53,476 nt of DNA from an uncultured Pseudomonadota bacterium (lineage in GTDB: Bacteria; SAR324; JACQKK01), in NCBI GenBank assembly GCA_964583525.1, contig CAZOXD010000010.1, positions 1-53,476 on the forward strand, in the 5' to 3' direction. Within the stretch, counting starts at the first letter, position 1. Each line of letters starts with the position of its first letter. Positions 9,023-52,779 of the stretch are shown here, piece after piece. The notes under the pieces were generated by a model. It was given only the letters and a program-made list of their open reading frames with translations. It did no database searches and was not told the DNA's origin. Position numbers and translations under genes: made by a program.

Positions 9023-10312
9023 CTACTCAGGCGCTCCCTGACTTTTCCTGACCATATCCAATCCTTTGAAAACATCTGCGGTCATTGGGGGATCCATGAC
9101 CTTCTTGTCTGTGATTGATAAGATTTTTTTTAATCGTTGTTCCCATTTTTCCAACGCCTCCCGTTTCTCTTTGTCGTACCTATGTCGATTATATAATCGG
9201 GTTACGCTAGTTTCAGTGTGGTTCAATAACTTCCCAATGATATTTTCGGGGACACCCTCCTCCCCCATGTAGGTGGAGGCAGTGCGGCGAAGGTCGTGAA
9301 GGACAAAGTCCTTCACCTTGGCTTTCTCGTCAACTCGTTGTTTTGCCTTCTGGATGTTGTTGATGAACTGTCCTTTGCGGGTTGGACTAGGGAAGACCCA
9401 ATCGGACTCTGCATCTTGATCCTCATCCTCCCCGTCCTTCTTTTTCGGGAGGGCCATGATGATTTCCAACGCAGTCTTGGTCAGGGGGACACGATGGGAC
9501 TTCTTGTTTTTTGCAAATTCCCCTGGGATAGTCCACCAGTTCACATCAGTATCAATATCCTGCCAACGCATATGAGATATCTCCCATCGTCTCTGCCCGG
9601 TGAGAAGCATTAGCTTCATAATTCCCCCGACATAGGTATTTTGTTTGTCGAAATTTTCCCACAGGATTTTGATCTCTTTTTCTTTGAGGACTCTATCTCG
9701 TTCTCTTTCATCGCTTGGCTTTTTCACCTGTTGACAGGGATTATAGTCCAATAAACCTTCTTCGATTGCCCAATTGAAAATTATACTGATCAGGGCACGA
9801 ACTCGATTGGCTTGAATAGGGGCAGGCCGCTCGACTATTTCGTCCAACAACCCTTTGATATCCCACCGGGTGATATCAGCTCCCTTCATCCCCTCCCATT
9901 TAGGTTTCAATTCTTTTTCAATTAAACGTTCATCAGCACGCCACTGTCTTTTTTTGGGTTTCGCGTGTTTTTCAATGTATTCATTCGCGATTGTCTCAAA
10001 TGAGGATTTCTTCGGCTTAGGTGGCTTGGTCTTGAAGTAATCCTTGCCTTTTTTAGCTAGCTTTCTAACCTCACTGGCCAATTCACGTGCATCAGCCAAA
10101 GAAAGGTCAGGATATGTCCCAATTTTTTTGTTGTTGAGAATATTAATTTCATTGGCCTTATCAACAACCCTGTACATGATTTTCCAAGTTTTTTTGCCAG
10201 ACGGGTAAACGTGAATTCCAAAGGAGGGATTTTTCTCGTCCCAATAGATTGTTACCCCCTTTTTTGGAGGGCGAATTGAGTCAAGAAATCGAACAGTAAG
10301 ATTTTTTTTCAC
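9023..10312 (-). CDS. int: Tyrosine recombinase/integrase with an N-terminal arm-binding domain (P4-like/DUF4102 type)
   Basis: Likely GTG start at 10312 (VKKNLTVRF); LLTGQRRWEI, HDLRRT, LLNH and catalytic Y in RLYNRH. Confidence 0.93.
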   Translation of the reverse strand: MKKNLTVRFLDSIRPPKKGVTIYWDEKNPSFGIHVYPSGKKTWKIMYRVVDKANEINILNNKKIGTYPDLSLADARELASEVRKLAKKGKDYFKTKPPKPKKSSFETIANEYIEKHAKPKKRQWRADERLIEKELKPKWEGMKGADITRWDIKGLLDEIVERPAPIQANRVRALISIIFNWAIEEGLLDYNPCQQVKKPSDERERDRVLKEKEIKILWENFDKQNTYVGGIMKLMLLTGQRRWEISHMRWQDIDTDVNWWTIPGEFAKNKKSHRVPLTKTALEIIMALPKKKDGEDEDQDAESDWVFPSPTRKGQFINNIQKAKQRVDEKAKVKDFVLHDLRRTASTYMGEEGVPENIIGKLLNHTETSVTRLYNRHRYDKEKREALEKWEQRLKKILSITDKKVMDPPMTADVFKGLDMVRKSQGAPE

Positions 10313-10331
10313 CAGGAATTCCCGAGAAAAA

Positions 10332-10350
10332 TAGTAACATATTAGTAACA
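10332..10350. promoter_or_regulatory. Tandem 11-bp-period repeats (TAGTAACA x2), putative integrase arm-type sites
   Basis: TAGTAACA at 10332 and 10343, between int and att; an analogous pair lies at 31974-31994. Confidence 0.55.
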
Positions 10351-10466
10351 AAAATCAGAAACTCAATGATACAACATGAAACAGCATGAATCATTTTTCA
10401 TTTTATAATACAGTATAATAGAAATTGAATATTGTCTCAAGGGAATTCATGGAATGCCATAAAATA

Positions 10467-10513
10467 GCGATTCATAATCGCGAGGTCGGGAGTTCAAGTC
10501 TCCCTCCTGCTAC
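10467..10513 (+). repeat. att scar 1: 3' half of a tRNA(CAU), Met or Ile2
   Basis: GCGA-TTCATAA-TCGC anticodon arm, GAGGTC, T-arm GGGAG-TTCAAGT-CTCCC, then TCCTGCTAC; no D-arm or 5' acceptor strand upstream. Confidence 0.92.
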
Positions 10514-13187: not shown

Positions 13188-14297
13188 TTATTTGGCGATT
13201 TCTGCCATTGAATAGCTGGTGCTACGCCCGCCGGATGCGTCCTTAACCAATATCCCGCGTTTGATAAGGTTATCAATATCGCGGGAGGCAGTATCTTGGG
13301 AGCATTTCCCTAGCTTCGCCCATTTCGAGGATGTAAGTTTTCCATCGAATCCATCCAGCACCCGGTTGAGGAGTATTCTTTGCCTGTCATTGAATGATTC
13401 ACCACCATGGAGTTCCCAAAAGCGTGCCTTCCTAAGTACGTCCGCCAGAATCGTGTCCGCACCATCGAAGGCGCGATCCAAACAGCCCAGGAACCATTCG
13501 AGCCATCCCGTGATCTCCAGATCTCCTTTCTGGGTTGCTTCCAGAATGTCGTAATAAGCAGTTCGTTCTACTCGAATTTGTGCGGACATGCTGTAAAACC
13601 GTTGCGGGCTTTCCTCCGACCGTGAAAGCGCCATATCGGCAATGGCTCGCGCGATACGACCATTGCCATCATCGAAGGGATGGATTGTGACGAACCACAA
13701 GTGGGCAATCCCGGCCTTTATTACACCATCAATAGGATTATCTCTGTTGAACCACTCGAGAAATTCGCCCATTCCGCGATCCAACTTACTGGCTACTGGC
13801 GCTTGGTAATGGACTCTTTCTTTTCCGATGGGGCCGGAAACCACCTGCATCGGTCCTGCACGGTCGTCTCGCCACTCTCCCACACGGATTTTCGACATAC
13901 CGCTTCGTCCAGTCGGAAACAAAGCAGCGTGCCAGTTACATAACCGGTCATTGGATAGAGGTGCATCAAACTTCTGTGTTGCATCAAGCATCATTTCAAC
14001 CACGCCTTCCACATTGCGGTCAGCTTGTGAAAGCCCCCCAACATCTATGCCCAGACGTCTAGCGATTGACGAACGTACCTGTTCCCGGTCCAGGATTTCG
14101 CCCTCTATCTCACTGGATTTGAGCACATCTTCGGTGATAGTACTGAGTGTGGCTTCCGCACGAAGGCCAAAACCCAATCCTTCCATTCGTCCGATCAACC
14201 GCCCTTGGCGATGGCGTAGAGAGGCAAGTTGATCTGCGAGGCGTTCCTGTCCCCAGCGGAATTTCGGCCAATCCTCTAATTCATATATATATGTCAT
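13188..14297 (-). CDS. fic: Fic family protein (DUF4172 N-terminus, C-terminal HTH)
   Basis: Start MTYIYELEDWPKFRW; Fic motif HPFDDGNGRIAR. Confidence 0.92.
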   Translation of the reverse strand: MTYIYELEDWPKFRWGQERLADQLASLRHRQGRLIGRMEGLGFGLRAEATLSTITEDVLKSSEIEGEILDREQVRSSIARRLGIDVGGLSQADRNVEGVVEMMLDATQKFDAPLSNDRLCNWHAALFPTGRSGMSKIRVGEWRDDRAGPMQVVSGPIGKERVHYQAPVASKLDRGMGEFLEWFNRDNPIDGVIKAGIAHLWFVTIHPFDDGNGRIARAIADMALSRSEESPQRFYSMSAQIRVERTAYYDILEATQKGDLEITGWLEWFLGCLDRAFDGADTILADVLRKARFWELHGGESFNDRQRILLNRVLDGFDGKLTSSKWAKLGKCSQDTASRDIDNLIKRGILVKDASGGRSTSYSMAEIAK

Positions 14298-14301
14298 CGC
14301 A

Positions 14302-14386
14302 ATAATCTCCGCATAACTTACGGAGATTATGGCAGCTATTCTCCGCAAGAGCAAGAATAAAATCCGCATTTTCTGCGGAGAAAATA
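14302..14386. promoter_or_regulatory. Array of TCCGCA/TGCGGA dyads upstream of fic
   Basis: Perfect IR ATAATCTCCG-N9-CGGAGATTAT (14302-14330), plus further TCTCCGCA, ATCCGCA and TGCGGAGA half-sites. Confidence 0.55.
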
Positions 14387-14720
14387 GGCCATATTGTCCG
14401 CAATTTGGTCTTCGCGCCAGAAATGAGACAACTATTAATGGAAAATACGTCTGAAACTGAGTCCAGAGCCTGTGACATTCAATCGAGCGGATTGGGGTCT
14501 GGGTTTCGCCCCATAGCATTGTAATTAAGGGGTAATCCTGGGGCGACGGGCTGGGCCGATATCGGAAAACGGACGAAGATGATTAAACGGTAAAATGAGT
14601 CCGACGAAAGCGTCGACAGATCGGAGATGAAAATTACCTCAGGTTTTCATCAAAATTTACCGCTGTAGGTAGTGGTCGGGATCGGAAGTATTTTGAAGGG
14701 GTTTATTCGTGTGATTTTTT

Positions 14721-17329: not shown

Positions 17330-17599
17330 CTAACCAAATCAGGAAGTACCTCACTTGGTCACAGCTTCTTAGTAATAACGGTTGTCCAACAAAGTCTGTT
17401 TTCTTAATGTCCCAAGAACACGAAGACAGAGGAGATCACAAAGGGTTGGTGGAGGTAAAAAGAGAGGATGGTTTTGGAGGTGTTCTTCTTTGGGAGGACG
17501 TATTTCGGATTGCGGATGCCCCCTTACAAGAGATGCTTGGCCCACACATCCATGGGAAATAATTTTAAATACACACGGTTGCATTGATAGCGTTTACCC

Positions 17600-19346
17600 A
17601 TGCCCCCATCCCTCCACCCCATCCCCCCTCCCTGACACCATCCGCCGCGACCCGCGCTTCCTGGCGGAGGTGCGGGTGTACGACGCCCTGGCGGCCTCCC
17701 TGCCGGAGGACTACGCGGGCTATCACGGGGTGGCATGGCTGGCCAAGAAGTCAGGCGCCAATGCCTGGGACGGGGAAGCCGACTTCGTGATCGCCCACCC
17801 GGAGCGGGGGGTGCTGGTGCTGGAGGTGAAAGGAGGCGAGGAAATCCGCTACGAGGCCGATCCGGGCAAGTGGTACAGCCGCAACGTCCAGGGGGAATTC
17901 CACACCATCAAGGATCCCTTCGAACAGGCCCGCAAAAGCAAGTACGCCCTGCTGCACAAGCTGAAGGACCTCCCCGCCCTGAAGGGGCGGCGGCTGCCCA
18001 TGGCCCACGCGGTCTGCTTCCCCGGGGTGCTGAAGGAGCACGTGCCGCTACGGCCCGACGCCCCGCCGGAGATCGTGCTGGACCGGGCGGACCTGGACGA
18101 TCCCGCGCCCCGCATTGAAGCCATCTTCGACTTCTGGCAGGGCCAGGAGGGTACGGGAATAAGCACCACCGAGCCCCTGGGCCCCTCCGGCATGGATGCC
18201 GTGCGGCGCCTGTTGGCCCGCTCCTTCGAATTGCGCACCCCGCTGGGACGCGAAATCGCGGAGGAGGAGCGGGAAATCCTCAGGCTATCGCAAGGACAGT
18301 TTTCCCTGCTGGACTTTCTGGCGCGCCACCGCCGGGCGGCCATCCATGGCGGGGCCGGCACCGGCAAGACCTTGCTGGCGCTGGAGAAGGCCAGGCGCCT
18401 CGCCGCCGAGGGGTTCCGCACCCTGCTCACCTGCTACAACGTTCCGCTCGAGGCGCATCTCAGGGCCAGTAGCAGGATTAGCGAGAACCTGACCATTCAG
18501 CGCTTCCACACCCTCTGCGAGGAAGCCGCCCGTGCCCGCGGGGTGCCGGTGGATTCCAGGCCGCCGGATCATCCCGACGATGCCCATTGGAAAGAGGTAT
18601 TGCCCAAAGCGCTGCTGGATGCGCTGGATGCGGGCTTCGAGAAATTCGACGCCATCGTGGTGGACGAGGGCCAGGACATTGCCGAGGACTGGTGGACGAA
18701 TCTGCGGCTCTGTCTCAACGACCCGGATCAGGGCATTCTCTATGCCTTCCTGGACCCCGGGCAATTGATCTATGGCCACGGCGGGGACTTCCTGGACGAC
18801 CTGCCGGTCTTCGAGTTGAACGCCAACCTGCGCAATACGCGCCAGATCCATTACCTAGCTCAGCACTTCTCACCCGGCCACAACCTGATTCCCCAGGGCC
18901 CGGAGGGACGTCCCCCCGAGATCATCTCCCTGCCGGAGACCGCCGACCTCCAGCGCGAATTGGGAAAAGTGCTGCATCGCCTGATCCGCGAGGGACAGAT
19001 TCCCGCGGAGGACATCGCGATCCTGCTGGGCCGCCGTCCGGAATCCGTCGGGCTGCCCAGGACGGGGAGCATCGGCGCCTTCGCCATTACCAATGCCCTG
19101 GAACCTTCGCCCGGCAAGGTCATCCTGGAGACCATCCATCGCTTCAAGGGCATGGAAGCCCCGGCGGTCATTCTCACCGGGTTGGAGGGCATGCACTCCG
19201 CCACGGCGGAGACGTTGCTCTACGTGGGCATCACCCGCGCCAAGGGGCACTTGGTGGTGATGGAGAAGGCGGAGGTATTGGAAAAATGGGGGTTGGGGCC
19301 CAAAAGTAAGGAGTCAAAACCGGATGGGACGTTGGGTCCGTCCTGA
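17600..19346 (+). CDS. NERD nuclease fused to an SF1 (UvrD-like) helicase; N-terminus probably frameshifted in a C-rich tract
   Basis: DGEADFVIAHPERGVLVLEVKGG (NERD), GGAGTGKT, IVVDEGQD, NLRNT, TIHRFKGME and LLYVGITRAK. Confidence 0.88.
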
Positions 19347-19387: not shown

Positions 19388-19891
19388 ATGTCAAGGGAAT
19401 TATCGATCCAATGGGCACTGAGCGTTATGGCCAATTCACGGCAGTGGGCAATTCTAGACACGGAGACCACGGGCTTCGCGGGTGACGACGAGGTGATCCA
19501 AATCGGGATTCTGGGGGTGGAAGGTGAAACTCTGCTCGAATCGCTGGTCAAACCGGTGAAGGGTTGGATTCATCCACAGGCCTCCAAAGTTAATGGAATC
19601 ACCATGGAAATGTTGGCGGATGCTCCCCTATTTCGGGAAATCCATGGAAATTTCTCCGGAGTGCTACGAGGAAGGCGTGTAATCGCCTATAACGCTCTCT
19701 TCGACCGGAGGTTGATCGCCCAGAGTGAAAGGGCAAACGGCCTCGAACCCCTGAGCCTGGAGTGGGAATGTGCCATGCAGCAGTTCACCCGGTTCAGCGG
19801 AAGCCAGACCCGGTTGCAGGGTGGGGATCACAGCGCGATTGGGGACTGCCAGGCCACCCTCGAGGTCATCAAGGTCATGGCAATGGGGTGA
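19388..19891 (+). CDS. DEDDh (DnaQ-like) 3'-5' exonuclease
   Basis: ILDTETTG, AYNALFD and HSAIGDC motifs. Confidence 0.88.
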   Translation: MSRELSIQWALSVMANSRQWAILDTETTGFAGDDEVIQIGILGVEGETLLESLVKPVKGWIHPQASKVNGITMEMLADAPLFREIHGNFSGVLRGRRVIAYNALFDRRLIAQSERANGLEPLSLEWECAMQQFTRFSGSQTRLQGGDHSAIGDCQATLEVIKVMAMG

Positions 19892-20035
19892 ATTTTAAAA
19901 TTGGTATCCGCCGTTGCCCATGTGCCAATCCCACCCTTCCATGATCGTCAATTCCGGTCGCGTGGTCTCAAGGTTATCGGCTCATCTCTTTGTAATCACA
20001 GCCATTAATTCTGCTGATACTCATACGCTTCCCCC

Positions 20036-20077
20036 TTCATAATCGCGAGGTCGGGAGTTCAAGTCTCCCTCATGCTA
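20036..20077 (+). repeat. att scar 2: 3' part of a tRNA(CAU), starting exactly at the anticodon loop
   Basis: TTCATAATCGCGAGGTCGGGAGTTCAAGTCTCCCTCATGCTA; one mismatch to copies 1 and 3. Confidence 0.9.
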
Positions 20078-20118
20078 TTTGATATGAAAAGGCTTTTCGG
20101 TATTTCCGGGAAGCTACC

Positions 20119-20270
20119 TTCTCATAAGTTATTATGACACAAAAACAGGCGGATTTGAAGGCGATTCGAGGGGTTTTGCAAAGCTGCGATCAAAGCAAAA
20201 AAGACCGGGAAACCCCTTTTGGATCGACCTGTACTTTCATCAACAGGGCGTCGACACCACCACGCCCGGC
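20119..20270 (+). mobile_element. res-like dyad plus internal serine-resolvase fragment (miniature remnant, copy A)
   Basis: TCATAA-GTTA-TTATGA dyad, then (G)IDLYFHQQGVDTTTP; a homologous block lies at 47362-47505. Confidence 0.65.
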
Positions 20271-20323
20271 TGCGGCGGTGGGCACCCGCTCGGGAATCTC
20301 GTCTCGCGCTGAATTGGCCGCGC

Positions 20324-21160
20324 CTATTGTTCGGGAACCTCGATCGGCAAGTCCTGCCGACCCCCCCACTCTTTCCATGACCCAATGAAATTGTGAATTC
20401 TTTCATAGCCCAGCAATCGTAGGGCCAGATGGGCATGGGAAGAGCGGTAGCCGCCTTGTCAGAAGGGCACGATGGCCTTGTCGCGCAGCACACCCGCGCC
20501 CTCAAACATAGCTGTCAATTCCGCCGCGCTCTTGAACTTGCCGTCCTCATCCAGGTAGTTCGTCCATTCCAGGTGAACCGCCCCAGGGATGGTGCCGCCC
20601 CTGGGCCCGCCGCGCGTGTTTTTCCCTGTCCACTCATCGTCGCTGCGGGTATCCAGCACGACCAGGTCGCTGTCACCCAACTTGGCGTTCAGGTCATCGG
20701 CCGACATGAATAATTCGCTGCGGAGTGTGATGCTCAGGGAATGAGCCTTAGGCGTGTTTATCTTCCGCACGGTCTCATAGCCCGCGGCGCGCCAAGCTTT
20801 CATGCCGCCGTCGAGCAGATGCACATCCGTGTGGCCAAAGTATTCCAGCATCCAGAAAGTACGGGCCGCCCGCATGCCCGAATCCTCCTCGTAAACCACC
20901 ACGGTACGATCCATGCCTACCCCACGCATTTCCATCAGGGAGCACATCATTTCATTGTACAAACTCAGGGGTTCGGGCTGGGTATTGGACAAGTATACTC
21001 TGTAATGATCAAAGTGGGTCGCGCCGGGAATGATGCCCTCCATCACCAGATGAGTCGGTCTGGTATCGAGGATCACCAGGTTTTCATCACCCAGCCGTCC
21101 ATGTAGTTTTTCCGGCGTCCAGATCAGGTCGCTGTTGGTATAATCATCAACTCCCGCCAT
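20324..21160 (-). CDS. Two-domain rhodanese/sulfurtransferase with UGA (probable selenocysteine) at the catalytic position
   Basis: The frame continues past TGA (20459-20461): VPF-U-QGGYRSSHAHLALRLLGYERIHNFIGSWKEWG...EQ* (TAG 20324-20326), matching the CxxGxR loop and the GSWxEW C-terminal motif; 278 aa. Confidence 0.88.
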
Positions 21161-21464
21161 CGAGTTCCCCTTGAGCCAGTCGGGTTATCAAATCCACCAT
21201 CAGCCGCACACCCACGCCGCTGCTCCCTTTGGGAAATAGCGGGTGCCCACCGTCGCTCCATGCATAACATTCCATGTGGGCCCTCGCAATGTCGCCGGCG
21301 AATTCCTTGAGAAACATCGCCACCGTGATGGCGCCGCCAATGCCGGGAGAAGCCTTAGGTTTTGGCTGAGTTGACCTCTACCCACAGGCGTTCTATTTCG
21401 GTTTCCGAAAGCGCTAACGTTCAAGGAACTCTCCTATTTTTGTTACCCGACATTCCCCAGATGG

Positions 21465-21713
21465 AGCCTTGAAGAACTACACGCCCTCGGGATCGACCTG
21501 TATTTGCAACAGCAGGGGCTGGATACCACCACGCCAGCCGGTAAGGCGATGTTCCAGATGTGCGGGGTGTTCGCGGAGTTCGAGCGATCCATAATCAGGG
21601 AACGGATCAACGCTGGGCTGGAGAGGGCGAAAACGAACGGGAAGATATTGGAAAGACCTAGGGTAGATCAATCGGTTGAACAGGTAAATCCGAGAGGCTC
21701 TGCAAATAGGTGA
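21465..21713 (+). pseudogene. Serine resolvase/invertase internal fragment
   Basis: LEELHALGIDLYLQQQGLDTTTPAGKAMFQMCGVFAEFERSIIRERINAGLERAK; the catalytic N-terminus is absent. Confidence 0.85.
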
Positions 21714-21747: not shown

Positions 21748-24051
21748 TCACACGCTCCCTTTTATGGAGGCTACATCCCTTCCCGCGATTTCATACATGG
21801 CCTGAGCAGACAGTAAGTAGGAAAGGGTAGACTCCGCTCCCTGGTTACGATTGATACCGTGAGCGCTAAGGCCGTCGAAGCACCCACCCGTTTTTAGGTC
21901 GCAGACCATTTCTTCAATATCATTCATGCCTAGGAACCAGGAAAAACAACGCTCCGCTTCACGCCGCCATTCTTCCTTGCCGCTCAGCCAGTAGGCCGCA
22001 GTACACGCCCAGACCAAACCCATGGCTTCCACAGGCTGTTGGTCGAATTGGGCTTTCTTTCCGCCCCGCTCTAGCCATCCACTGTTGCCGATGATCGAAA
22101 GGTTGCCATCAGAAGCTGTTTGATGGCTCAGCAGCCAAGTGAGCACGGCGATTCCTTTTTCGTACATCGGCTGATTGTTCAGCAGAGAACCTGCAACCAT
22201 CAGCGCGTGGGAAAGCTTCGCGTTGGAATAGTTAACCGTGTCCTCCAACCAGATCCAGTCCTTTGAAGCATTGGCCTCGAATCGCCGCAGCAATTCACTT
22301 GAAAGTGCCTCCAGCACACGTCGGGCAGATTCATGATCCGGATTGTGGCGGAGGTAGTGATATGTGCCGAGGATGCTGAACGCCCAAGCACGTGGGGACG
22401 TCATTTTCTCCGTGGCGGGGAGTGCCCGTTCCATCAGTTCAAGTGCCATCGACGAAATCAGATTATTTGCGGCGTAACGCGCAGTGAAGCCGAGGCTCCA
22501 TAGGGACCGGCCATGGCAGTCTTCACTTCCTTTTTCATTCAGCCATCTGCGGTCGTAAGACATAAAATTGCGGAAAAATCCGGTTGACGAATCAAACGCA
22601 TCCAGGACAAACGCAAGATATCTCTTGATCAGGGGAATGACGGATTCATCTTTTCTCAAGCGATAGTAGTCACAGGCCACGATCAGCGCACGGGCGTTGT
22701 CATCGGTACAGTACCCTTCCCTCCTGTTGGGGATGTCGTAGGTGGCATGCTGAAGTATGCCAGTATCGTCTGTGAGCACCAGCATATGCCCCAAGTTGAT
22801 TTCCGGGACCACGTCGAGCAATTTCTGTGCGGGGGGGCGCTTTTCAACGATTTCGAAGATTCTTTTCCTTGGAACCTTTCTTGTTGCAATAATCTCATCC
22901 ACAAGACCCAGGTAGTCGCGGGCGACTTGCTTCCAAATCATGGAGCGACTGAAATGGTAGGCTGCGGTTCGCATGGCCTCCCGTTCCGCGTCGTTTGAAA
23001 GGAGCCGGCTAATCGCCTTGCTTAGGTCTTCTGAATTTCCAAATGGAACGAGGCAGCCGCGTCCGTCTTCGAGTAGCTCCTCGGCATACCAGTAAGGAGT
23101 GGAAACAACAGTATTCCCAGCGCCAAAGGAATAGGCAAGCGTCCCAGAGGTTATTTGTTCAGGCTGGGTGTAGGGAGACACGTATATATCTGATGCCAGC
23201 AGGTACTCAACAAGATCCTGCAGATCAACAAATTGGTTGTGAAACAAGACGCAACCATCCAACCCCAATTCTTTGGATATGTACTGGAGCTTGAGCCGAT
23301 AGTCTTCGCCCTGTTCCCGCTTGATATCCGGGTGTGTTTCACCAAGGATCACGTAAATAGCATCGGGATGCTCTGAGACAATATCCGGCATTGCCTGAAT
23401 CATGTCTTCCACACCCTTGTTCGGACTCAGCAGCCCGAAGGTGAGCATCACCTTGTGGCCTTCAAATCCAAGCTTCACCTTCATTTTGTCGGGGGACTGC
23501 AGTGGCAGGTCGGGAATTCCGTGGGGAATGAATTTCACTTTCTCAGGAGGCAGGCCATACACGTCTTGCAAGATAAGTTCAGCTTTGCGGCTCATGACAG
23601 TGAGGTATTGCGAACAGTCAGCCAATTCCAGCAGGACTCGCTTCTGGCTTTCACTGGGCTTGAGCAAAACCGTATGAAGGGTTGTAATCAGGGGAGACCT
23701 GAGGTTTCCGACAAGGTGTAAGATGTAGGCGCCAGCCTCACCACCGAAAATCCCATATTCGTGCTGAAGAATTACGGCATCGTGGTGCGTCGTGTTTAAG
23801 AATTCCGCGGCGCGCAAATACTCTGCCTGGACATTCGCCGAAACCGAAAATTTCACACGTTCCGGATACGGATATTCTTTCTGAATATCGGTCATAGCGA
23901 CCGCAATAACCTCGTCAATTTGCGCTTGATCTTCCCGGGCCAGCGCCTCCGCTAAATCAGTCGTGAAGGTGGCGATGCCGCACCGCCGTGGAAGGTAGTT
24001 TCCGATCAGTGCAAGTTTGTAGGTGGATGGGATTTCGGTAATATTAATAAT
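21748..24051 (-). CDS. GT4 glycosyltransferase fused to a C-terminal six-hairpin glycosidase-like domain
   Basis: Conserved N-terminal LIGNYLPRRCGIATFT lies upstream of the first ATG (23895); QHEYGIFGG, FGLLSPNKG, QITSGTLAY, YCTDDNARAL and NQGAESTL motifs. Start inferred at ATT 24051 or 24048. Confidence 0.85.
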   Translation of the reverse strand: MINITEIPSTYKLALIGNYLPRRCGIATFTTDLAEALAREDQAQIDEVIAVAMTDIQKEYPYPERVKFSVSANVQAEYLRAAEFLNTTHHDAVILQHEYGIFGGEAGAYILHLVGNLRSPLITTLHTVLLKPSESQKRVLLELADCSQYLTVMSRKAELILQDVYGLPPEKVKFIPHGIPDLPLQSPDKMKVKLGFEGHKVMLTFGLLSPNKGVEDMIQAMPDIVSEHPDAIYVILGETHPDIKREQGEDYRLKLQYISKELGLDGCVLFHNQFVDLQDLVEYLLASDIYVSPYTQPEQITSGTLAYSFGAGNTVVSTPYWYAEELLEDGRGCLVPFGNSEDLSKAISRLLSNDAEREAMRTAAYHFSRSMIWKQVARDYLGLVDEIIATRKVPRKRIFEIVEKRPPAQKLLDVVPEINLGHMLVLTDDTGILQHATYDIPNRREGYCTDDNARALIVACDYYRLRKDESVIPLIKRYLAFVLDAFDSSTGFFRNFMSYDRRWLNEKGSEDCHGRSLWSLGFTARYAANNLISSMALELMERALPATEKMTSPRAWAFSILGTYHYLRHNPDHESARRVLEALSSELLRRFEANASKDWIWLEDTVNYSNAKLSHALMVAGSLLNNQPMYEKGIAVLTWLLSHQTASDGNLSIIGNSGWLERGGKKAQFDQQPVEAMGLVWACTAAYWLSGKEEWRREAERCFSWFLGMNDIEEMVCDLKTGGCFDGLSAHGINRNQGAESTLSYLLSAQAMYEIAGRDVASIKGSV

Positions 24052-24299
24052 ATGGGCCCCCTTTATACCCGGGGAGTCAAATTAGATTGGTTCACAAAAA
24101 ATAACCGTTGCTCCACTAAACTCCTGATTTTCCATCGGTAGCTCTGAATTCGCAACATGGGGAAGGGGGAAAAGGGCCTCTCGATGCAGGCGATGGGAGA
24201 AATCCGTGCACCTAAATGAAGTCGCCGGAGCCACGCTTGGTTGTGTCACCGCTTGCCCGCCCTATCCAAGTCTACTGGAGGACAGCAAGTCGCAAGGAC

Positions 24300-25763
24300 T
24301 CAAGATGATTTTAGCGCGGAAAGCAGATCTCCGATAGGGACCACCGCGATGGTCGATGCCTGGTCCGACATTGCATAGGGAATGATGAGTTCTTCGTTAT
24401 GAATGATCGAACCGCAACTGTAGACCACATTCGGAACATAGCCTTCCCGCTCATCCCGATTGGGAATTAGTAATGGGTCCCTTAGCTTTCCAATCACCCG
24501 GTTTGGTCTGTCCAGATCCAACAAGATAGCCCCGATAAAGTACTGCCGCATGGGACCGACGCCATGGGTGAGGAGGAGCCATCCTTCGGGGGTTTCGATG
24601 GGTGAGCCGCAATTCCCGATCTGAATGAACTCCCAGGGGTCAACCGGTTTCTGTAGGCGTTGGGCGTCATTCCAAATATGGACATTATCGGAAGTTGAAA
24701 TGTACATGTTTTCGCCGTCTAACCGCGAGATCATCACATAACGCCCATTTATTCTTCGTGGGAAGAGGGCCATTCCTTTGTCTTTAGCGGAATCTCCGTT
24801 GAGCGTAATCATGCGGAAATGAAGAAAATCCTTGGTGACGACAATCTGCGGCAGGATGTTCCAGCCATCAAATGCAGTACAGGTCGCATAATAGGTTGTT
24901 TCCCCATTGTCATCTACGAATCGAACGAAGCGAGCGTCTTCGATGCCACTACTTTCATTTTCCGAAACCGGAAATATCACTCGTTCGGAAAGATTGCGCT
25001 CAGGATCAAACCGGATTTCGTAGTTGGAGCGGGCAAGCCATAGCATATGGTCAATGGTCTTTTTAATTACTACCCGATGATTCTTTGGCCTTTCGTACTC
25101 GTTGATGGCTTTCATCAATTCTTCAAATGTGAATTCATCATTGAGCTGTGAAAGAATCGTTTCTGAAAAAATGTTCTTCCAGTCCATCTCTTCAAGCTTA
25201 CGAAGGAAGTTTTCTAAATAGTAATTTGGATTTTTAACAATATCTGCTCGCTCCACATAACGGCTGACAGGATCGAATACGGTAGAATTGTCTTTCTTAA
25301 AAATGCCACTGCGAAACTCGATTGATGAGAGATGTCCTTCGCCCGTGGAACGAAAACTCATCACGAACCGAAGTTCTCCTGGCTTGAGTCCGCTTTGGTC
25401 CGGATGTGGAACAATGGAAGGGTTGAAGAAGGCAGCTGACTGGATAGAATATTCATGGGTAAAATAAGCTCCGATAAGCAGGCGTTTAGTGTCAATAATT
25501 TTATTTTCCGGGGGCATAAACCGGGATACATGTTGGAAATTTATTTCGAAGTCGCCCCAAATATCTTTGTGCCTGTTATCAAAATTCCGTTTGATCCCTT
25601 CTAAAACATGCTCGGAATCAATGTCCGACATACTGAGTACGCGGTTGATAACATTTCGAATACGATCTTCTCCGCCGGGGAAAAAAGGTTTGGTGATCAC
25701 ACGTGATGAATCAATGTGAAAGACTTCCTCTCGCCGCCTAGCTATGACCGTAACATTATGCAT
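24300..25763 (-). CDS. GH130-like (DUF377) glycoside hydrolase/phosphorylase, long form
   Basis: FFNPSIV, GIEDARFV, KDKGMALFPRRING, IGNCGSP, GYVPNVVYSCG; RBS-supported ATG at 25763. Confidence 0.85.
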   Translation of the reverse strand: MHNVTVIARRREEVFHIDSSRVITKPFFPGGEDRIRNVINRVLSMSDIDSEHVLEGIKRNFDNRHKDIWGDFEINFQHVSRFMPPENKIIDTKRLLIGAYFTHEYSIQSAAFFNPSIVPHPDQSGLKPGELRFVMSFRSTGEGHLSSIEFRSGIFKKDNSTVFDPVSRYVERADIVKNPNYYLENFLRKLEEMDWKNIFSETILSQLNDEFTFEELMKAINEYERPKNHRVVIKKTIDHMLWLARSNYEIRFDPERNLSERVIFPVSENESSGIEDARFVRFVDDNGETTYYATCTAFDGWNILPQIVVTKDFLHFRMITLNGDSAKDKGMALFPRRINGRYVMISRLDGENMYISTSDNVHIWNDAQRLQKPVDPWEFIQIGNCGSPIETPEGWLLLTHGVGPMRQYFIGAILLDLDRPNRVIGKLRDPLLIPNRDEREGYVPNVVYSCGSIIHNEELIIPYAMSDQASTIAVVPIGDLLSALKSS

Positions 25764-25862
25764 GCTGTGACTTCCTTTTCCGCGGATGAGCGAAGGGTAA
25801 AGCCTCACGCTTTATTAACTGATTATCCCCCATTGACTATCTGGGAGCCCAATTGGATTTCC

Positions 25863-26807
25863 CTATAGAGGCTCTCTCGCGCGAGTCAAGCACATGTCCG
25901 CGAGATCAGCTATAGAAGCTGTCCCGGCACACATTACCGTATCGGCGCCTCCCCAATAAATTTTTACCGTTCCGTCATCTTCCGGGATTGCTCCGCAGCT
26001 AAACACCACATTCGGTACATAACCTGTTCGCTCCCAGGGAGCAGCAGGTTCAAGGATCCATTCATCGGCCACGCCAAGGATGCGCTCCGGGTTATCCAGG
26101 TCGTGAAGGGCAACCCCCAGGCGGTAGACTGCCCCTCCCATTGTTTGAAAAACCCCGTGGTAGATGTGTATCCAGCCTTTTTTGCTGGGAATAGGGGGTG
26201 CCCCTGGCCCAATCTTCATCTCATCCCAATGGTATTTCATAGGGTTCATAATGACACGGGAATTTCCCCAGTGGATCAAATCCGGGGAATAGGAGATGCA
26301 AATAGGCCACGGGTTGATTTCCGAGTGGGGCCGGTCGAGGCGAACGTAGTGACCGTCGAATTTTCTCGGGAAAATCACGGTATTGCGCATATCCGGCTGG
26401 GAAATGAAAGCAATCCGCTCGACCATATCAAAATCCCGGGTTCGAGCCAGGCCAATTCTAACGCCGTATCTTGAATAGGCGCTGTAAGTCAGCAGGTACT
26501 CACCTTCACAGGGGGAAATGCGCATATCCTCCACCCCATATTCCTCGTACTCGGCAAAAACCCCTTCTGTTGCCGGTTCGAGAAACGGTTGAGGGTGTAC
26601 GACAAAGGAAAAACCATCAACGCTCTCGGCACAGCCAATGATCGAGCGCCCGTTCAGGCGATGCGACCGAAAGAGCAATATGTAACGGTCCTGGAACTTG
26701 CAAGCCCCTGCGTTGTGCACCGTTGCGACCGGGTAGGGAATATCCTCTTTGGTCAAAATGGGATTCTTCTCATATCGGCGAACAATGCCAGCGTGTTTTT
26801 CCACCAC
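25863..26807 (-). CDS. GH130 family glycoside phosphorylase/hydrolase
   Basis: VHNAGA, YGVEDMRI, RNTVIFP, KIGPGAPP and YVPNVVFSCG. Confidence 0.9.
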   Translation of the reverse strand: MVEKHAGIVRRYEKNPILTKEDIPYPVATVHNAGACKFQDRYILLFRSHRLNGRSIIGCAESVDGFSFVVHPQPFLEPATEGVFAEYEEYGVEDMRISPCEGEYLLTYSAYSRYGVRIGLARTRDFDMVERIAFISQPDMRNTVIFPRKFDGHYVRLDRPHSEINPWPICISYSPDLIHWGNSRVIMNPMKYHWDEMKIGPGAPPIPSKKGWIHIYHGVFQTMGGAVYRLGVALHDLDNPERILGVADEWILEPAAPWERTGYVPNVVFSCGAIPEDDGTVKIYWGGADTVMCAGTASIADLADMCLTRAREPL

Positions 26808-26838
26808 GACTTTTGCTCCGTTGTGTCCCGCATCGGTG

Positions 26839-27882
26839 TTACGATGCAGGAGTCAGCCTGTCAAGCCCTCCCGCTCCTCTCAAGATCTCGCGGTAAACAG
26901 AAAGATACTCGTCAACCATACGCTCGGACGAAAACCGCTTTTCAACCGACTTGCGGCACTCTGCCCGCTCTATTGATCCGATCTGTGCAACTGCCTCCAC
27001 GGCGCCATCGACGTCCCGCACCAGAAAACCGTTGGTCCCCGACGTGATCAGTTCAGGCATCGAACCTCGATTAAAGGCAATTACCGGAGTGCCGCAGGCC
27101 ATCGACTCCACCACAGACAGTCCAAAGGGTTCCTCAAAATAAATCGGGTGGAGCAGGGCATAGGCTTGGCGCAGCATGCGATTTCGTTCGGCCGGCCCGA
27201 CGCTTCCGATGTACTGAACCTGATTGTCATCGATATGAGGTTTTACATGAGTATCAAAATAATCCTGGTCCTGGATGATGCCGGCGATAATCAATTTTTG
27301 CCCTGAGCGTCTGGCAACTTCAATGGCTTCCCGGGTTCCTTTATCCGGGTGTATTCGCCCGAAGAAAAGAAGATAGTCGTTGGGACTGGGGTTGAAGTCA
27401 AACTGTTCAAGTTCAACACCGTGATGGATTGTCCGCAGATAGTTCAACCTCTCGCTCCGATCTGCATCGCTGATCGACACATAATGGGTCTTGCCGTTGT
27501 ATTTTTCGTAAATCGGCAAAATTTCCGGCGAGGAGAACCCGTGGATCGTCGTGAGAACCGGCGTCGCGACCAATGCGGTGTAGGTAAGCGGCAGGAAGTC
27601 GAAATGGTTGTGGATGAGATCGAATTCCCGGGCGTGCTCAAAGACCTCGGCTATATGCAGGCACTCCCAGACCTTGGGGATGATGCTGCTGTCTTCTTCA
27701 TAGCCGGATCGACATACACCTCTAAGTTCTGCCTGCGTCAGAGAATCTTTCGTGGCAAACAAGGTCACCGCAACGCCCCGGCGCACCAATCCTTCCGTCA
27801 GCACTGAGACCACGCTTTCCCAGGGTCCATAGTGCTGAGGGGGGGTTCGCCAAGCGATCGGCGATAACATCGCGATTTTCAT
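26839..27882 (-). CDS. GT4 family glycosyltransferase
   Basis: MKIAMLSPIAWRTPPQHYGPWE, FGRIHPDKG and EEPFGLSVVESMACGTPVI. Confidence 0.92.
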   Translation of the reverse strand: MKIAMLSPIAWRTPPQHYGPWESVVSVLTEGLVRRGVAVTLFATKDSLTQAELRGVCRSGYEEDSSIIPKVWECLHIAEVFEHAREFDLIHNHFDFLPLTYTALVATPVLTTIHGFSSPEILPIYEKYNGKTHYVSISDADRSERLNYLRTIHHGVELEQFDFNPSPNDYLLFFGRIHPDKGTREAIEVARRSGQKLIIAGIIQDQDYFDTHVKPHIDDNQVQYIGSVGPAERNRMLRQAYALLHPIYFEEPFGLSVVESMACGTPVIAFNRGSMPELITSGTNGFLVRDVDGAVEAVAQIGSIERAECRKSVEKRFSSERMVDEYLSVYREILRGAGGLDRLTPAS

Positions 27883-27989
27883 CTCTTCACCTTCTGAGGG
27901 GATGTCCCCTCCGCCGTGGAATTTATCCGGCACCCCTTGTCTATGGTGGAATATTGCTCCATGGGGGCCGGGTGCGCTCGGATTTTGAA

Positions 27990-30679: not shown

Positions 30680-31948
30680 TTACTGATATTTTCCATCCTG
30701 CATTTCTTTTGCATAATTTTCCATAATCCTTACCCCGTTTTTTAGCCAAAAAGCCCAGGCCTCTTCATTGGTTTTCGGAGCATGAATAGGATCGAGTATG
30801 GTTAAGAGTTTGTTTTCCCAAGTCTCAAGTGCATTCATCTTCTCCAGATCGTAGGAATATCTGTCATAAAGACGAGTAACACCTGCTTCAACGTGATTAA
30901 GAACTTTTGATAGTACCGGCCCAGGAATGCCTGCGGATGCCATATGGCTAGTAGCGGTTCGCCTGAGATCATGGAGCCAAAAATCTTGGATCCCCGATAA
31001 TTCTTTTACTCGTTGAGCTGCCTTTTGGACATTAGCTATGTGCTGGTTCTCCCTTGTCGGGCTAGGAAACACCCAAACCTGATCCTTTTTCTTTTCTGGA
31101 AGAGAAGAAATGATTTCCTTGGCCGTGACGCATAATGGCACTCGATGAAAATGTCCATTTTTTACAAACTCCCCCGGGATCGTCCACCATTTGCCTTTTT
31201 CATCAATATCCCGGAACCGCATATGGGAAATTTCCCAGCGCCGTTGAGCCAAAAGAAGCATGAGTTTAAAAATTGCCCCTACATGGGCTCCTTGCTCATC
31301 AAAAGCGATCCAAACCGATCTGATTTCCTCCTCTGTCAGGACTCTCTCTCGTTCATTTTCCTTTGAGAGTTTTTTTATCCCATGACATGGATTTACCTCC
31401 AACATGTCACGGCTAATCGCCCAGTTAAAAATTACGCTAATCAATGAGTGAATACGGTTCGCCTGAATTGGAGCGCCTCTGGATACAACACCATCTAGTA
31501 AAGCAATTACATCACGTTTTTTAATGTCGGTGGCTCGGAGTCTCCCCCAGGCTGGAAGCAATTCTTTTTTAATCAGTCTCTCGTCCGCTTTCCACTGTCG
31601 CTTTTTAGGCTTGGCATGTTTTTCAAGATATTCATTGGAGATTGCCTTAAAAGTCTTCCCATCAAGCCTCTTTGTTTTTTTCCGCTCGTAAACTAAATCC
31701 AACCCTTTTTGCGCAGAATTCAGAATATCCCTTGCCTCTCTTTTGGCTTCTGCCATTTTCATTGTTGGATAGACACCAAGTTTTTTGCTTTTCTGTTTAC
31801 CTCCGACCCGGTACATCACGATCCACGACTTTTTTCCTGAACTGTAGACATTAAGGCCTAGCTCGGCATCTTTATCCCAATATTGATCCTTTCCCTCCTG
31901 TGGAGGCTTGAGTGCCTTAACAATCCGATCTGTCAGTTTTTTTTTCAT
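30680..31948 (-). CDS. int: Tyrosine recombinase/integrase with arm-binding domain, paralogue of 9023-10312
   Basis: MKKKLTDRIV..., LLAQRRWEI, HDLRRT, VLNH and RLYDRYSY; long blocks shared with int1. Confidence 0.95.
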   Translation of the reverse strand: MKKKLTDRIVKALKPPQEGKDQYWDKDAELGLNVYSSGKKSWIVMYRVGGKQKSKKLGVYPTMKMAEAKREARDILNSAQKGLDLVYERKKTKRLDGKTFKAISNEYLEKHAKPKKRQWKADERLIKKELLPAWGRLRATDIKKRDVIALLDGVVSRGAPIQANRIHSLISVIFNWAISRDMLEVNPCHGIKKLSKENERERVLTEEEIRSVWIAFDEQGAHVGAIFKLMLLLAQRRWEISHMRFRDIDEKGKWWTIPGEFVKNGHFHRVPLCVTAKEIISSLPEKKKDQVWVFPSPTRENQHIANVQKAAQRVKELSGIQDFWLHDLRRTATSHMASAGIPGPVLSKVLNHVEAGVTRLYDRYSYDLEKMNALETWENKLLTILDPIHAPKTNEEAWAFWLKNGVRIMENYAKEMQDGKYQ

Positions 31949-31994: not shown

Positions 31995-32120
31995 AAAAAG
32001 TCGAGTTTGATATCACGTAAATTTTCGTGTTTTTCTTCTCAAAACAAAATAATTGTCATAATATCAATCATATGAAACAATTTTACCTAATAATTCCAAC
32101 GAGATGGATTAAAAAATTAA

Positions 32121-32166
32121 GCGATTCATAATCGCGAGGTCGGGAGTTCAAGTCTCCCTCCTGCTA
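32121..32166 (+). repeat. att scar 3: 3' half of a tRNA(CAU)
   Basis: GCGATTCATAATCGCGAGGTCGGGAGTTCAAGTCTCCCTCCTGCTA, identical to copy 1. Confidence 0.92.
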
Positions 32167-47583: not shown

Positions 47584-48678
47584 TCAGCGCAACGTTTTCA
47601 GATACGCCACCAAATGATGGATTTCCTTGACCGGCAGGCCAACCGCCGGCATGAGGGAAACCATTTTCCCGTTTTGCAGGGAAAAGTGGTTCTTTCCCGG
47701 AACGATGAAGGCCGAAGGGTTCACCAATGACTCGAAAAGGTAATGGGGGCGGTGAATGCCGCCCACATATGTGAGATCCGGGCCAATCTTTTTCTGTGCC
47801 GGGTTGCCGGGGAAGAAATGGCAGACGATACAGCCGGCTTTTTCGACGAGGAGCATCCCGGTCCGGGGGCTGCCTTGATATTCCGGCCGCCATGCAAGGC
47901 TATCCACGTAGGCAGGATCCACCTTGCCCCGCTCGAAGTGCAGGAAATGCCAGGAGGAAAGCAGCTTGTCCCCATCCCGTTGATTCTCTTCGCCGTTCCA
48001 GATTGCCAGGGCGATCGGAACCAGTCCTTGCCTCGCAGGTTGAATCTGCACCGAATAGGTGCCGGGAGGGGTCCGAAGCGAGCGCTTGATGACGACCCGC
48101 CACGCCTCGGCTTCCCACAGCCCGTTGGCCCGCACCCCCTCGGACGGCTGGCCGGTCAGGCTCCCAAACCCCTCGGCGGCCAGCATCTCTACTTTCCCAT
48201 CGGCACGCCAGAACCAGATTGTCACCGGACTGCCCGGATCACCCATTCCGACATATGGTAACCGGGCACCTGGGCCGTAGCGAGTGGGGAACTGGATGGC
48301 GAAGGCGTCGGCGAACCTCCCGATACCCCGCTGCTCCGCCGGGGTCCGATCCGGCCATTCAATGGAGAGGGCCAGTTCATCCTCATTGTAGAGTGCTCTC
48401 ACCATCGCCGTGAGGCTGGAACGCTGGGTGTATTTGGGGGTAGTTGTGACTTGCGGGTAGAGGATTACCCGCGTCGACTCGGCCTGATTCCATGCGGGAG
48501 CCCTTGCGTCCACGGGAAGAGGCCCAGTGGACCATCGAGCGGTGACTATTTCTCCCTCCCGGCGAAGTGCCGCGAGGGACTCCTGCCCGTAAGCCGCTAC
48601 GGACAACCCCAGCCAAGCCACCCAGGCCAAAGCCGTCCATATCGGCATTTTATGCCATCCCGTCATCTTCCATTCCAC
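47584..48678 (-). CDS. Gamma subunit: EbdC-like heme b domain fused to a C-terminal c-type cytochrome
   Basis: Signal peptide; DAFAIQFP, PYVGMG (Met) and RDGDK (Lys) as in EB_dh-type domains; CIVCH...IGPDLT...ESLVNP. Confidence 0.85.
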   Translation of the reverse strand: MEWKMTGWHKMPIWTALAWVAWLGLSVAAYGQESLAALRREGEIVTARWSTGPLPVDARAPAWNQAESTRVILYPQVTTTPKYTQRSSLTAMVRALYNEDELALSIEWPDRTPAEQRGIGRFADAFAIQFPTRYGPGARLPYVGMGDPGSPVTIWFWRADGKVEMLAAEGFGSLTGQPSEGVRANGLWEAEAWRVVIKRSLRTPPGTYSVQIQPARQGLVPIALAIWNGEENQRDGDKLLSSWHFLHFERGKVDPAYVDSLAWRPEYQGSPRTGMLLVEKAGCIVCHFFPGNPAQKKIGPDLTYVGGIHRPHYLFESLVNPSAFIVPGKNHFSLQNGKMVSLMPAVGLPVKEIHHLVAYLKTLR

Positions 48679-52764: not shown

Positions 52765-52779
52765 ATCGTTTCCGTCAAT

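Follow-up and report, generated by a model that had tools for sequence, protein, structure and literature searches.

Is the in-frame TGA codon of a bacterial rhodanese gene read as selenocysteine (Sec) and, if so, which RNA element directs the insertion? The question is raised by a contig from an uncultured bacterium of the SAR324 lineage (GenBank assembly GCA_964583525.1, contig CAZOXD010000010.1), which was analysed over 53,476 nucleotides (nt) and is referred to here as the window. On its minus strand an open reading frame (ORF) of 233 codons starts with an ATG at 21160 and runs into a TGA at 20461-20459. The best explanation, and one that we hold to be probable, is that the gene encodes a two-domain selenoprotein of the RhdA/SseA type, the UGA being decoded as Sec by means of a long-range helix (helix A) that acts as a bridge together with a hairpin (hairpin F) lying beyond it.

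The gene and its predicted product

The gene and its critical codon are as follows.
20324..21160, minus strand: predicted complete selenoprotein gene, encoding a two-domain RhdA/SseA-type rhodanese of 278 amino acids (aa); from the reading frame and from Pfam, NCBIfam and PDB comparisons
20459..20461, minus strand: in-frame TGA at the position of the catalytic cysteine, proposed Sec234; aligned with Cys230 of RhdA

Past the TGA the frame continues for exactly 44 sense codons, QGGYRSSHAHLALRLLGYERIHNFIGSWKEWGGRQDLPIEVPEQ, before it reaches a TAG at 20326-20324. A first-pass annotation of this DNA, made from the sequence alone, had noted that the ORF as called ended at 20459 and that 44 further codons of rhodanese sequence followed, and its coordinates, codon count and motif are all correct. 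Pfam family PF00581 matches the read-through protein in two stretches (E = 1.7e-32), i.e. there are two tandem rhodanese domains. The best solved relative is RhdA of A. vinelandii (PDB 1e0c), with E = 1.5e-44 over residues 4-274, and full-length alignments of the read-through protein were also obtained with structures 8k55, 3p3a, 1uar and 3hzu. The TGA aligns onto Cys230, within the active-site loop CQTHHRS of RhdA, and the loop here is U-QGGYRS. In the C-terminal domain the active-site loop has six residues, and the codon encodes the first of these, a position that is occupied by Cys in 84 of 84 homologues having TGC or TGT there. The NCBIfam model for 3-mercaptopyruvate sulfurtransferase gives the window protein 122.7 bits, under its cutoff of 250 bits. 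Judged by this score the protein is not an SseA equivalog.

The same 233-aa product is called in two independent assemblies from one environment (Logan SRR8799001 and ENA ERZ23500248, SAMN11268106). No variants of the TGA were present in the contigs of four public runs, and the codon is therefore not a sequencing error. Taken alone the gene is a routine mis-annotation, with 233 aa called where read-through gives 278.

Selenocysteine and cysteine forms of the family

DNA was gathered for 160 related loci, drawn equally (80 each) from species-representative genomes and metagenomes, of which 132 had a readable active-site codon. This codon is TGA in 48, TGC in 58 and TGT in 26, and in none is it TAA or TAG. 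At every one of the TGA loci the frame past the TGA is open and conserved. The first-pass annotation had envisaged that the host might lack Sec machinery and the homologues have only Cys, in which case the TGA would be a nonsense mutation; with TGA in 48 of the 132 loci the second part of this is not the case. A protein search using the read-through sequence returned about 23 closest clusters (59-98% identity) that are 230-240 aa in length and all end ...IVPF. Remoter relatives (50-59% identity) have 277-280 aa and read ...VPFCQGGYRSSH....

The metagenome-assembled genomes that carry the TGA form are labelled SAR324, Lambdaproteobacteria, Nitrospinota, Gemmatimonadota, Latescibacterota and Poribacteria, so that at least six phyla are represented; JAPUIH01, JACQHH01, RFHZ01, JAPPJY01, OZ220733 and OZ242354 are examples of such genomes. 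A neighbour-joining tree built from the first 180 residues requires at least seven switches between Sec and Cys.

Selection was estimated by the method of Nei and Gojobori, comparing the window with five TGA relatives (L163, L165, L002, L001 and L164). After the TGA the nonsynonymous and synonymous divergences (dN and dS) are respectively 0 and 0.147 for L163, 0.065 and 0.281 for L165, and 0.082 and 0.479 for L002. The ratio dN/dS after the TGA is far below 1 (0-0.3) in four of the five comparisons; the fifth, with L164 (98% identical), has just three synonymous and three nonsynonymous changes. For L163 the ratio is about 0.14 before the TGA, while after it there are four synonymous changes and no nonsynonymous ones, and all of the RNA pairs described below are kept. 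These comparisons of sequence indicate that the 44 codons after the TGA are under purifying selection. Note that on passing the TGA dS itself falls by a factor of 2-3 in three of the comparisons (those with L163, L165 and L002), stays about equal for L001 and rises for L164. A lower dS after the TGA is the signature expected where an RNA structure overlies the coding sequence.

These data bear on two simpler accounts of the codon. In the first, TGC or TGT has mutated to a nonsense codon, leaving either a pseudogene or a 233-aa ORF that is the real product. A single transition or transversion would suffice for this, and gene callers do stop at 20459, but TGA occurs at 48 loci in at least six phyla and is never replaced by TAA or TAG, the frame beyond it is always open and conserved, in four of the five comparisons dN/dS there is well under 1, and there is an RNA structure that is specific to the TGA forms (see below). 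The truncated product would moreover end before the catalytic loop and so lack 44 residues at the end of its domain. We consider this account very improbable. In the second, UGA is read as Trp or Gly under an alternative genetic code, and no Sec is involved. UGA has been reassigned in some uncultured bacteria, but TGA serves as the stop codon of around half of the window's long ORFs, with no meaningful extension beyond it, the window translates normally under table 11, and the six phyla with the TGA form use the standard code. TGA is also restricted to the codon for the catalytic Cys, and an enzyme with Trp or Gly in that place would be inactive; we give this explanation hardly any credence.

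In the remoter TGA forms (from Gemmatimonadota, Latescibacterota, Poribacteria and others) there is a Cys at position -2 relative to the Sec, generating the sequence C-Y/F-U (loci L028, L031, L032, L035-L038, L044, L045, L063, L066, L070, L077, L080, L122, L128, L130, L131, L156 and L158). This Cys could form a selenenylsulfide with the Sec. The window clade reads P-F-U instead.

Conserved RNA structure downstream of the UGA

RNA structure was analysed in 46 distinct TGA sequences (alignments A2 and A6), here called the Sec set, and in 78-79 distinct Cys sequences (alignments A3 and A7) as a control. The region is free of insertions and deletions. The elements are listed in the order in which a ribosome would meet them, so that the coordinates fall.
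20448..20458, minus strand: spacer of 11 nt, CAAGGCGGCUA, that separates the UGA from helix A, the first conserved helix; columns 4-14 of A6
20440..20447, minus strand: 5′ strand of helix A, CCGCUCUU, paired with 20373-20366
20375..20439, minus strand: interior of the domain closed by helix A, from the fold of the window sequence
20438-20434 with 20379-20375, minus strand: helix B, CCAUG with CAUGG, extending helix A
20433-20431 with 20383-20381, minus strand: helix C, CCC with GGG, extending helix A
20366..20373, minus strand: 3′ strand of helix A, AAGAGUGG, closing an 82-nt domain (20447-20366); from the stack search and RNAalifold
20342..20362, minus strand: hairpin F, proposed SelB-binding hairpin of a selenocysteine insertion sequence (SECIS); from third-position entropy and covariation

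An exhaustive search for conserved complementarity found one long-range helix of 8 bp in the Sec set, helix A, and no comparable stack in the Cys set. The mean pair probability of helix A is 0.72-0.94. Pair 18-93, which connects an Arg codon (CGY) with a Glu codon (GAR), is CG in 31 and UA in 15 of the 46 Sec sequences and is unpaired in none, and pair 21-90 (Ser UCY with Lys AAR) is CG in 27, UA in 15, UG in three and unpaired in one. Fitch counts require at least five independent changes for pair 18-93 and about 8-9 for pair 21-90. The covarying changes are synonymous, affecting the third base of each of the four codons (Arg, Ser, Lys and Glu). By contrast, the columns of helix A are unpaired in 50 of 79 Cys sequences, and there the whole structure is no better than in shuffled sequences.

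The strongest synonymous constraint that is specific to the Sec set lies in codons +34 to +38, i.e. in hairpin F. The entropies at the third codon positions are 0.00, 0.00, 1.35, 0.15 and 0.34 bits in the Sec set, compared with 1.5-1.6 bits in the Cys set. In the window the hairpin has a stem of 8 bp, comprising GGUCGGCA (20362-20355) paired with UGCCGAUC (20349-20342), and a loop of sequence GGACU (20354-20350), whose GG never varies among the Sec sequences but does vary among the Cys sequences. The consensus is AUCGGC-[U/A]GGA[Y/G]YU-GCCGAU. None of the six core pairs is broken in any of the 46 Sec sequences, and there are compensatory changes in three of them (UA 35 and CG 11; CG 43 and AU 3; CG 45 and AU 1). 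Couplings across the stem link a synonymous change of Asp with a change of Ile to Val, and a change of Arg CGG to AGG with one of Pro CCG to CCU. In the Cys control set hairpin F is 61.5% paired.

Blind application of RNAalifold to alignment A6 returned exactly helix A and hairpin F, and returned nothing for the Cys set. These are the only two elements conserved at a level of 90% or above in the Sec set. When the 14 core pairs were scored in each sequence, all 14 were present in 43 of the 46 Sec sequences and 13 in the remaining three, and the loop GG was present in all 46. None of the 78 Cys sequences scored 14. Four of them scored 13 (L018, L087, L093 and L098, having TGC or TGT); these are nested among Sec clades, and from their sequences are probably recent conversions of Sec to Cys in which the signal is decaying.

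The window's own 132 nt past the UGA fold into a structure that contains both helix A and hairpin F, with a minimum free energy (MFE) of -51.3 kcal/mol (z = -2.3). This MFE structure has an extra closing helix (columns 7-13 with 123-129) that we reject since it is unconserved. Helices B and C are partly conserved, less so than helix A; pair 39-96, for example, is CG in 23, UG in 11, UA in seven and GC in two sequences. The apical hairpin of the domain, 20429-20422 with 20411-20403, is particular to the window clade, most of the other clades having an inner helix GUUGCGC/GCGCAAC in its place, and the interior of the domain is thus variable.

The proposal made in the first-pass annotation, that a UGA lies exactly at the catalytic Cys of a rhodanese, is borne out by the alignment with Cys230, by the existence of Sec and Cys forms, by the purifying selection after the TGA and by an RNA structure specific to the TGA forms. 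At the level of the family there is strong evidence that the Sec codon is genuine and maintained by selection, and that an RNA signal of its own goes with it.

Candidate SECIS elements

The published model of the bacterial SECIS has an apical loop of 3-9 nt with a G in the first two loop positions and a stem of 4-16 bp, with a spacing of 16-37 nt from the UGA to the loop (PMC13188914). The program bSECISearch misses 'atypical' bacterial SECIS elements in about 13% of known genes (PMC12013277). We scanned for candidates using our own implementation of the published bSECIS model, in which only perfect stems are allowed. No hairpin fitting the model is common to the family, the best being shared by at most 16 of the 46 Sec sequences. 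Hairpin F has the stem, loop and G of the model, but about 103 nt separate the UGA from its loop, which is outside the range of 16-37 nt.

Two other hairpins downstream of the UGA had been named in the first-pass annotation, which stopped short of identifying the SECIS with confidence. The first of these is
20443..20455, minus strand: hairpin GGCGG-CUA-CCGCU (20455-20451 with 20447-20443), probably non-functional

and the second is the UCUGGCCC/GGGCUA.GA hairpin (20429-20422 with 20411-20403), i.e. the apical hairpin of the domain. Both exist where they had been placed, but neither is a conserved element. GGCGG/CCGCU is 97% paired yet shows no double-sided changes, and its pairing is explained by the codons for Gly-Gly-Tyr-Arg. 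It competes with helix A for nucleotides 20447-20443, and its loop begins just 9 nt past the UGA; we therefore reject it as the SECIS. The apical hairpin is found in both the MFE and the centroid structures of the window and is real there, but it is confined to the window clade and is rejected as a SECIS for the family. The caution of the earlier reading was justified, given the lack of covariation in the one hairpin and its competition with helix A, and the clade-specific nature of the other.

SelB might nevertheless bind the apical part of the 82-nt domain (UCUGGCCC...GGGCUA in the window), hairpin F having a different role such as ribosome pausing, mRNA stability or provision of a second contact for SelB. 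The occurrence of the apical hairpin in both predicted structures of the window favours this, and formation of an inner C-G pair would leave a loop GAUU that starts with G and is about 40 nt from the UGA, only some 3 nt past the 37-nt limit. The inner helix GUUGCGC/GCGCAAC of most other clades also shows some covariation, at pair 57-78. Against this, the interior of the domain is unconserved between clades, with no model-conforming hairpin recurring in more than 16 of the 46 sequences, whereas conservation of 90% or above is restricted to helix A and hairpin F. Of these hairpin F is the most constrained, with its invariant GG. We therefore regard binding of SelB within the domain as unlikely, and return to hairpin F as the candidate for the SECIS.

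A model for the insertion of selenocysteine

In the mechanism that we propose, when the UGA is in the A site the mRNA from 11 nt onward would be held in the 8-bp helix A (20447-20440 with 20373-20366). This helix closes the folded 82-nt domain, which would act as a bridge. Hairpin F (20362-20342) begins 3-4 nt past the domain and has a stem, a loop size and loop Gs like those of a canonical bacterial SECIS. Following a path that skips the domain, the distance from the UGA to the GG loop would be 11 + 4 + 6 nt, i.e. about 21 nt, similar to that of E. coli fdhF. SelB with GTP and Sec-tRNASec would bind hairpin F and bring Sec to the UGA. The resulting enzyme would carry sulfane sulfur (or selenium) on a selenolate rather than a thiolate, and the copy in the window would work only where the host has selA, selB, selC and selD.

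For the bridged SECIS as such, i.e. a GG-loop SelB hairpin some 100 nt away that is brought near to the UGA by the 82-nt closed domain, we judge the chances to be about even. A plausible reason for such a design is that the codons for the active-site sequence QGGYRSS lie right after the UGA and give little room for a local hairpin. The architecture seems not to have been described before; in the literature on distant or bridged bacterial SECIS elements we found only general statements that atypical classes exist.

A number of observations weigh against our proposal. The functions of helix A as a bridge and of hairpin F as the SelB site are inferred from geometry and resemblance, and the strict bSECIS scan with perfect stems found no hairpin in the window that fits the consensus. 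No genes for selA, selB, selD or tRNA-Sec were present in the window or in the flanks of the 48 TGA loci, look-ups with genes from both ends of the window gave only shorter contigs, and a scan of TGA-joined ORF pairs recognised no second selenoprotein gene in the window. A sigma-70-like promoter was not recognised upstream of the rhodanese, promoter and terminator sites being no commoner than in shuffled sequence, and the native upstream gene has been lost from this copy. No RNA runs containing the sequence were found.

If the bridged reading is true, the structure would constitute one concrete class of the 'atypical' bacterial SECIS elements that bSECISearch misses, and a defined case in a field that posits 'distinct classes' of SECIS without defining them. 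It would mean that bacterial Sec insertion tolerates a long linear distance between UGA and SECIS provided that RNA structure bridges it. A non-consensus SECIS supported by covariation could improve gene finders, which look only 16-37 nt past the UGA. The family also provides a natural series of controls, with at least seven switches between Sec and Cys and some Cys forms in which the structure is nearly intact, that should be useful in studying the gain and loss of a SECIS within strongly constrained coding sequence. Lastly, the 1.08-kb cassette of the genomic islands would then transport a selenoprotein gene and its SECIS together. That such a small unit occurs in a tRNA-associated island is relevant to the way in which Sec-dependent genes spread among hosts that must be equipped for Sec beforehand.

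The cassette and its genomic island

The rhodanese gene forms part of a small unit with the following features.
20267..21345, minus strand: cassette of about 1.08 kb comprising the pepA 3′ remnant and the rhodanese gene; recurs in other flanking contexts
21161..21345, minus strand: 3′ remnant of pepA (M17 leucyl aminopeptidase), about 170 nt, directly upstream of the rhodanese gene; from DNA alignment with L001, L002 and L007
20212..20266, plus strand: fragment of a serine-recombinase (resolvase) gene abutting the cassette; a 55-nt repeat of 21481-21535, 78% identical

A full pepA is present directly upstream on the same strand in eight related loci and in L165, and in L163 a 58-aa ORF of the gene caller weakly matches Peptidase_M17. 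The homology of L163 (87% aa identity) with the window extends from 21325 to 20321, beyond which the flanks are unrelated. The cassette has been kept, with the same truncation of pepA, through 11% nucleotide divergence, and its UGA, frame and RNA pairs are intact. In L164 (ENA k141_1131858; 98%) position 20267 is joined directly to 21345, at L164 positions 906-908; as a sequence junction this indicates a putative tandem duplication or circular form of the 1.08-kb unit. The repeated resolvase fragments, with translations GIDLYFHQQGVDTTTP and GIDLYLQQQGLDTTTPAGKAMFQM..., bracket the cassette. There is no IntI-type integrase in the window, where both integrases have P4-like Arm-DNA-bind_3 domains (Pfam), and the unit is not filed as an integron cassette.

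The rhodanese gene lies between the arms of a 19-nt inverted repeat (20272-20290 and 21238-21256, 95% complementary). One of the arms is in the pepA remnant (codons SDGGHPL), and the inverted copy lies just past the rhodanese stop codon. The repeat would span the junction in L164. In the SAR324-like clade (L001, L002, L004-L007, L085, L102 and L165) the Sec-rhodanese comes right after pepA and sometimes overlaps it, a possible operon linking the breakdown of Cys-Gly or peptides to the transfer of sulfur or selenium. No conserved neighbours were found beyond pepA; adjacency to pepA is confined to the SAR324-like clade, and the neighbours in other clades are unrelated.

The wider context is that of an integrative island, with three further features.
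20049..20071, plus strand: 3′ fragment of a tRNA (T-arm and 3′ strand of the acceptor stem), presumed attachment (att) site that bounds the island on the left; exact repeat
30680..31948, minus strand: tyrosine integrase (Arm-DNA-bind_3, Phage_int_M and Phage_integrase; Pfam) at the right end of the island, beside the att copy at 32138-32160
9023-10351, minus strand: second P4-type tyrosine integrase, just left of the att copy at 10484

An exact 23-nt core of the tRNA 3′ sequence is present three times on the plus strand, at 10484-10506, 20049-20071 and 32138-32160, where none would be expected by chance, and around the copies at 20049 and 32138 approximately 45 nt can be aligned. Ahead of 20036, a genuine 5′ half of a tRNA is present in further contigs from this environment. 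No intact tRNA is present in the window, the Rfam tRNA match at 32098-32166 being a pseudo-tRNA (ARAGORN negative, five of seven acceptor pairs). The rhodanese gene lies about 250 bp inside the segment 20071-32138. It had been suggested from the first inspection that the gene is island cargo; this is supported by its position, which is flanked on either side by a direct copy of the tRNA 3′ fragment, the distant copy having a tyrosine integrase gene beside it.

The scrambled nature of the region raises the question of whether the gene is expressed here at all. It could be an intact selenoprotein gene that is silent or untranslatable, i.e. a promoterless cassette, transferred recently, in a host without Sec machinery, giving a truncated and inactive 233-aa product. 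The truncated pepA upstream, the resolvase fragments on both sides and the att site 250 bp away are in keeping with this, as are the want of a promoter-like site upstream of the rhodanese and of any Sec machinery or second recognised selenoprotein gene in 53 kb. However, the cassette of L163 has diverged by 11% and yet retains the pattern of selection and the RNA pairs, which is unexpected for an unexpressed gene, and the cassette is found with its TGA intact in several marine metagenomes. We consider a silent gene distinctly improbable. Full-length translation of the window copy in its host is likely on the evidence of sequence comparison, because purifying selection on the cassette has persisted throughout that divergence, on both sides of the TGA as well as in the RNA pairs.

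The cassette was seen only in metagenomes from marine sediment and seawater, and related contigs without it exist. In the source run the depth is 300-595 over 20013-20225 and about 129 over 21504-21645, compared with 55 for the surrounding contig (a 2-10-fold excess), and several contigs join approximately 20146-20248 directly to approximately 21483-21660. The high-depth stretches correspond to a multicopy repeat or resolvase-like sequence, with related elements that have no rhodanese cassette. The three att copies and two integrases have the appearance of a tandem array of integrative islands.

Other genes in the window

An AhpC/TSA ORF (52783-53343) is in frame with a 920-aa molybdoenzyme across a TGA at 52780-52782, and was considered as a second selenoprotein gene and rejected. 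These are two separate genes, since the Fe4S4 domain follows an ATG and Pfam shows a complete redoxin. The region 47584-53343 (minus strand) appears as an operon of the type II dimethyl sulfoxide (DMSO) reductase family, with the AhpC/TSA redoxin ORF first, followed by the 920-aa alpha subunit (for which the closest named match is 'dimethylsulfide dehydrogenase'), a 4Fe-4S beta subunit and an EB_dh/cytochrome c gamma subunit. The best named matches to the molybdoenzyme are mixed, coming from Rhodospirillaceae, Betaproteobacteria, Nitrospinae and Gammaproteobacteria at 71-74% identity.

Cargo resembling defence systems includes a 1662-aa NACHT/STAND NTPase with an Mrr_cat nuclease domain (998-5986), a DUF4172-Fic/DOC protein (13188-14519), a protein with NERD and UvrD-like helicase domains (17382-19346) and an RNase T-like exonuclease (19388-19891). 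Beside the cassette there is a glycan-related cluster at 21748-27933 (minus strand), with two GT4 glycosyltransferases and two GH130 mannoside phosphorylase-like genes; the cluster is also present on Logan contig L161.

Comparison with known systems

Rhodaneses containing Sec have been predicted previously. A Sec 'rhodanese-related sulfurtransferase' family was predicted from the Sargasso Sea (Zhang et al. 2005, Table 1, COG2897; PMC1088965), a Sec rhodanese was listed in the 2008 Global Ocean Sampling (GOS) study (cd01449; PMC2398784), and a 2026 review includes a UxxG Sec rhodanese as 'form 4' (PMC13188914). The statement in the first-pass annotation that such proteins are known from comparative genomics and are uncharacterised is in accord with these three sources.

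The window protein resembles the Sargasso Sec-rhodaneses in having Sec in place of the catalytic Cys, in its C-terminal rhodanese domain and in the motif U-x-x-G (UQGG here, uQAG and uQGG there), and like them it is known from sequence only and is uncharacterised. Aligned with two of the Sargasso fragments it places Sec on Sec, with 31-35% identity (E = 4e-17 and 5e-15). Nevertheless it belongs to a separate clade, reading RSSH.YLALRLLGY...GSWKEWG where the Sargasso proteins have RAAH...GSMGEWA. The recoding signals differ also. In the Sargasso genes a canonical local SECIS, UGCGUGC-GGC-GCACGCA, lies about 17 nt past the UGA, whereas the window clade has none at that location. Thus active-site loops of sequence QAGVRAAH or QGGIRAAH go with a local hairpin, while QGGYRSS in the window clade goes with a long-range helix and a hairpin that is about 103 nt away.

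In its overall organisation the protein is like RhdA (1e0c), SseA and the thiosulfate sulfurtransferases, which have two tandem rhodanese domains and 271-280 aa. The active-site loop is equal in length to that of RhdA and has the same R-S ending (CQTHHRS compared with UQGGYRS), but Sec replaces Cys230 and the loop has GGY in place of THH. With NCBIfam family NF041203 (rhodanese_LYCAU, 'rhodanese-related (seleno)protein', form 3, CxU) it has in common a rhodanese fold and Sec at the active site. The remoter TGA members of its family also share with NF041203 the Cys at -2 of the C-x-U type, where the window clade has P-F-U. NF041203 proteins are however single-domain and have 126 aa, and the window protein scores 59.5 bits against this model, for which the cutoff is 115.

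With regard to the RNA, the proposed element is in-frame and lies within the coding sequence 3′ to the UGA, as does a canonical bacterial SECIS. The minimal SECIS hairpin of E. coli fdhF starts at nucleotide 15 counted from the U of the UGA (PMC8659212), and helix A, the first conserved helix here, also starts at nucleotide 15. Hairpin F agrees with the bSECISearch consensus in its stem of 6-8 bp, its loop of 5-7 nt and a G at position 1 or 2 of the loop that is followed by a second G. It is unlike the canonical element in that the GG loop is some 103 nt away rather than 16-37, with the closed 82-nt domain lying between and no conserved hairpin in the canonical range. The protein is a further member of a known, uncharacterised family, and it is the recoding signal that departs from the consensus spacing.

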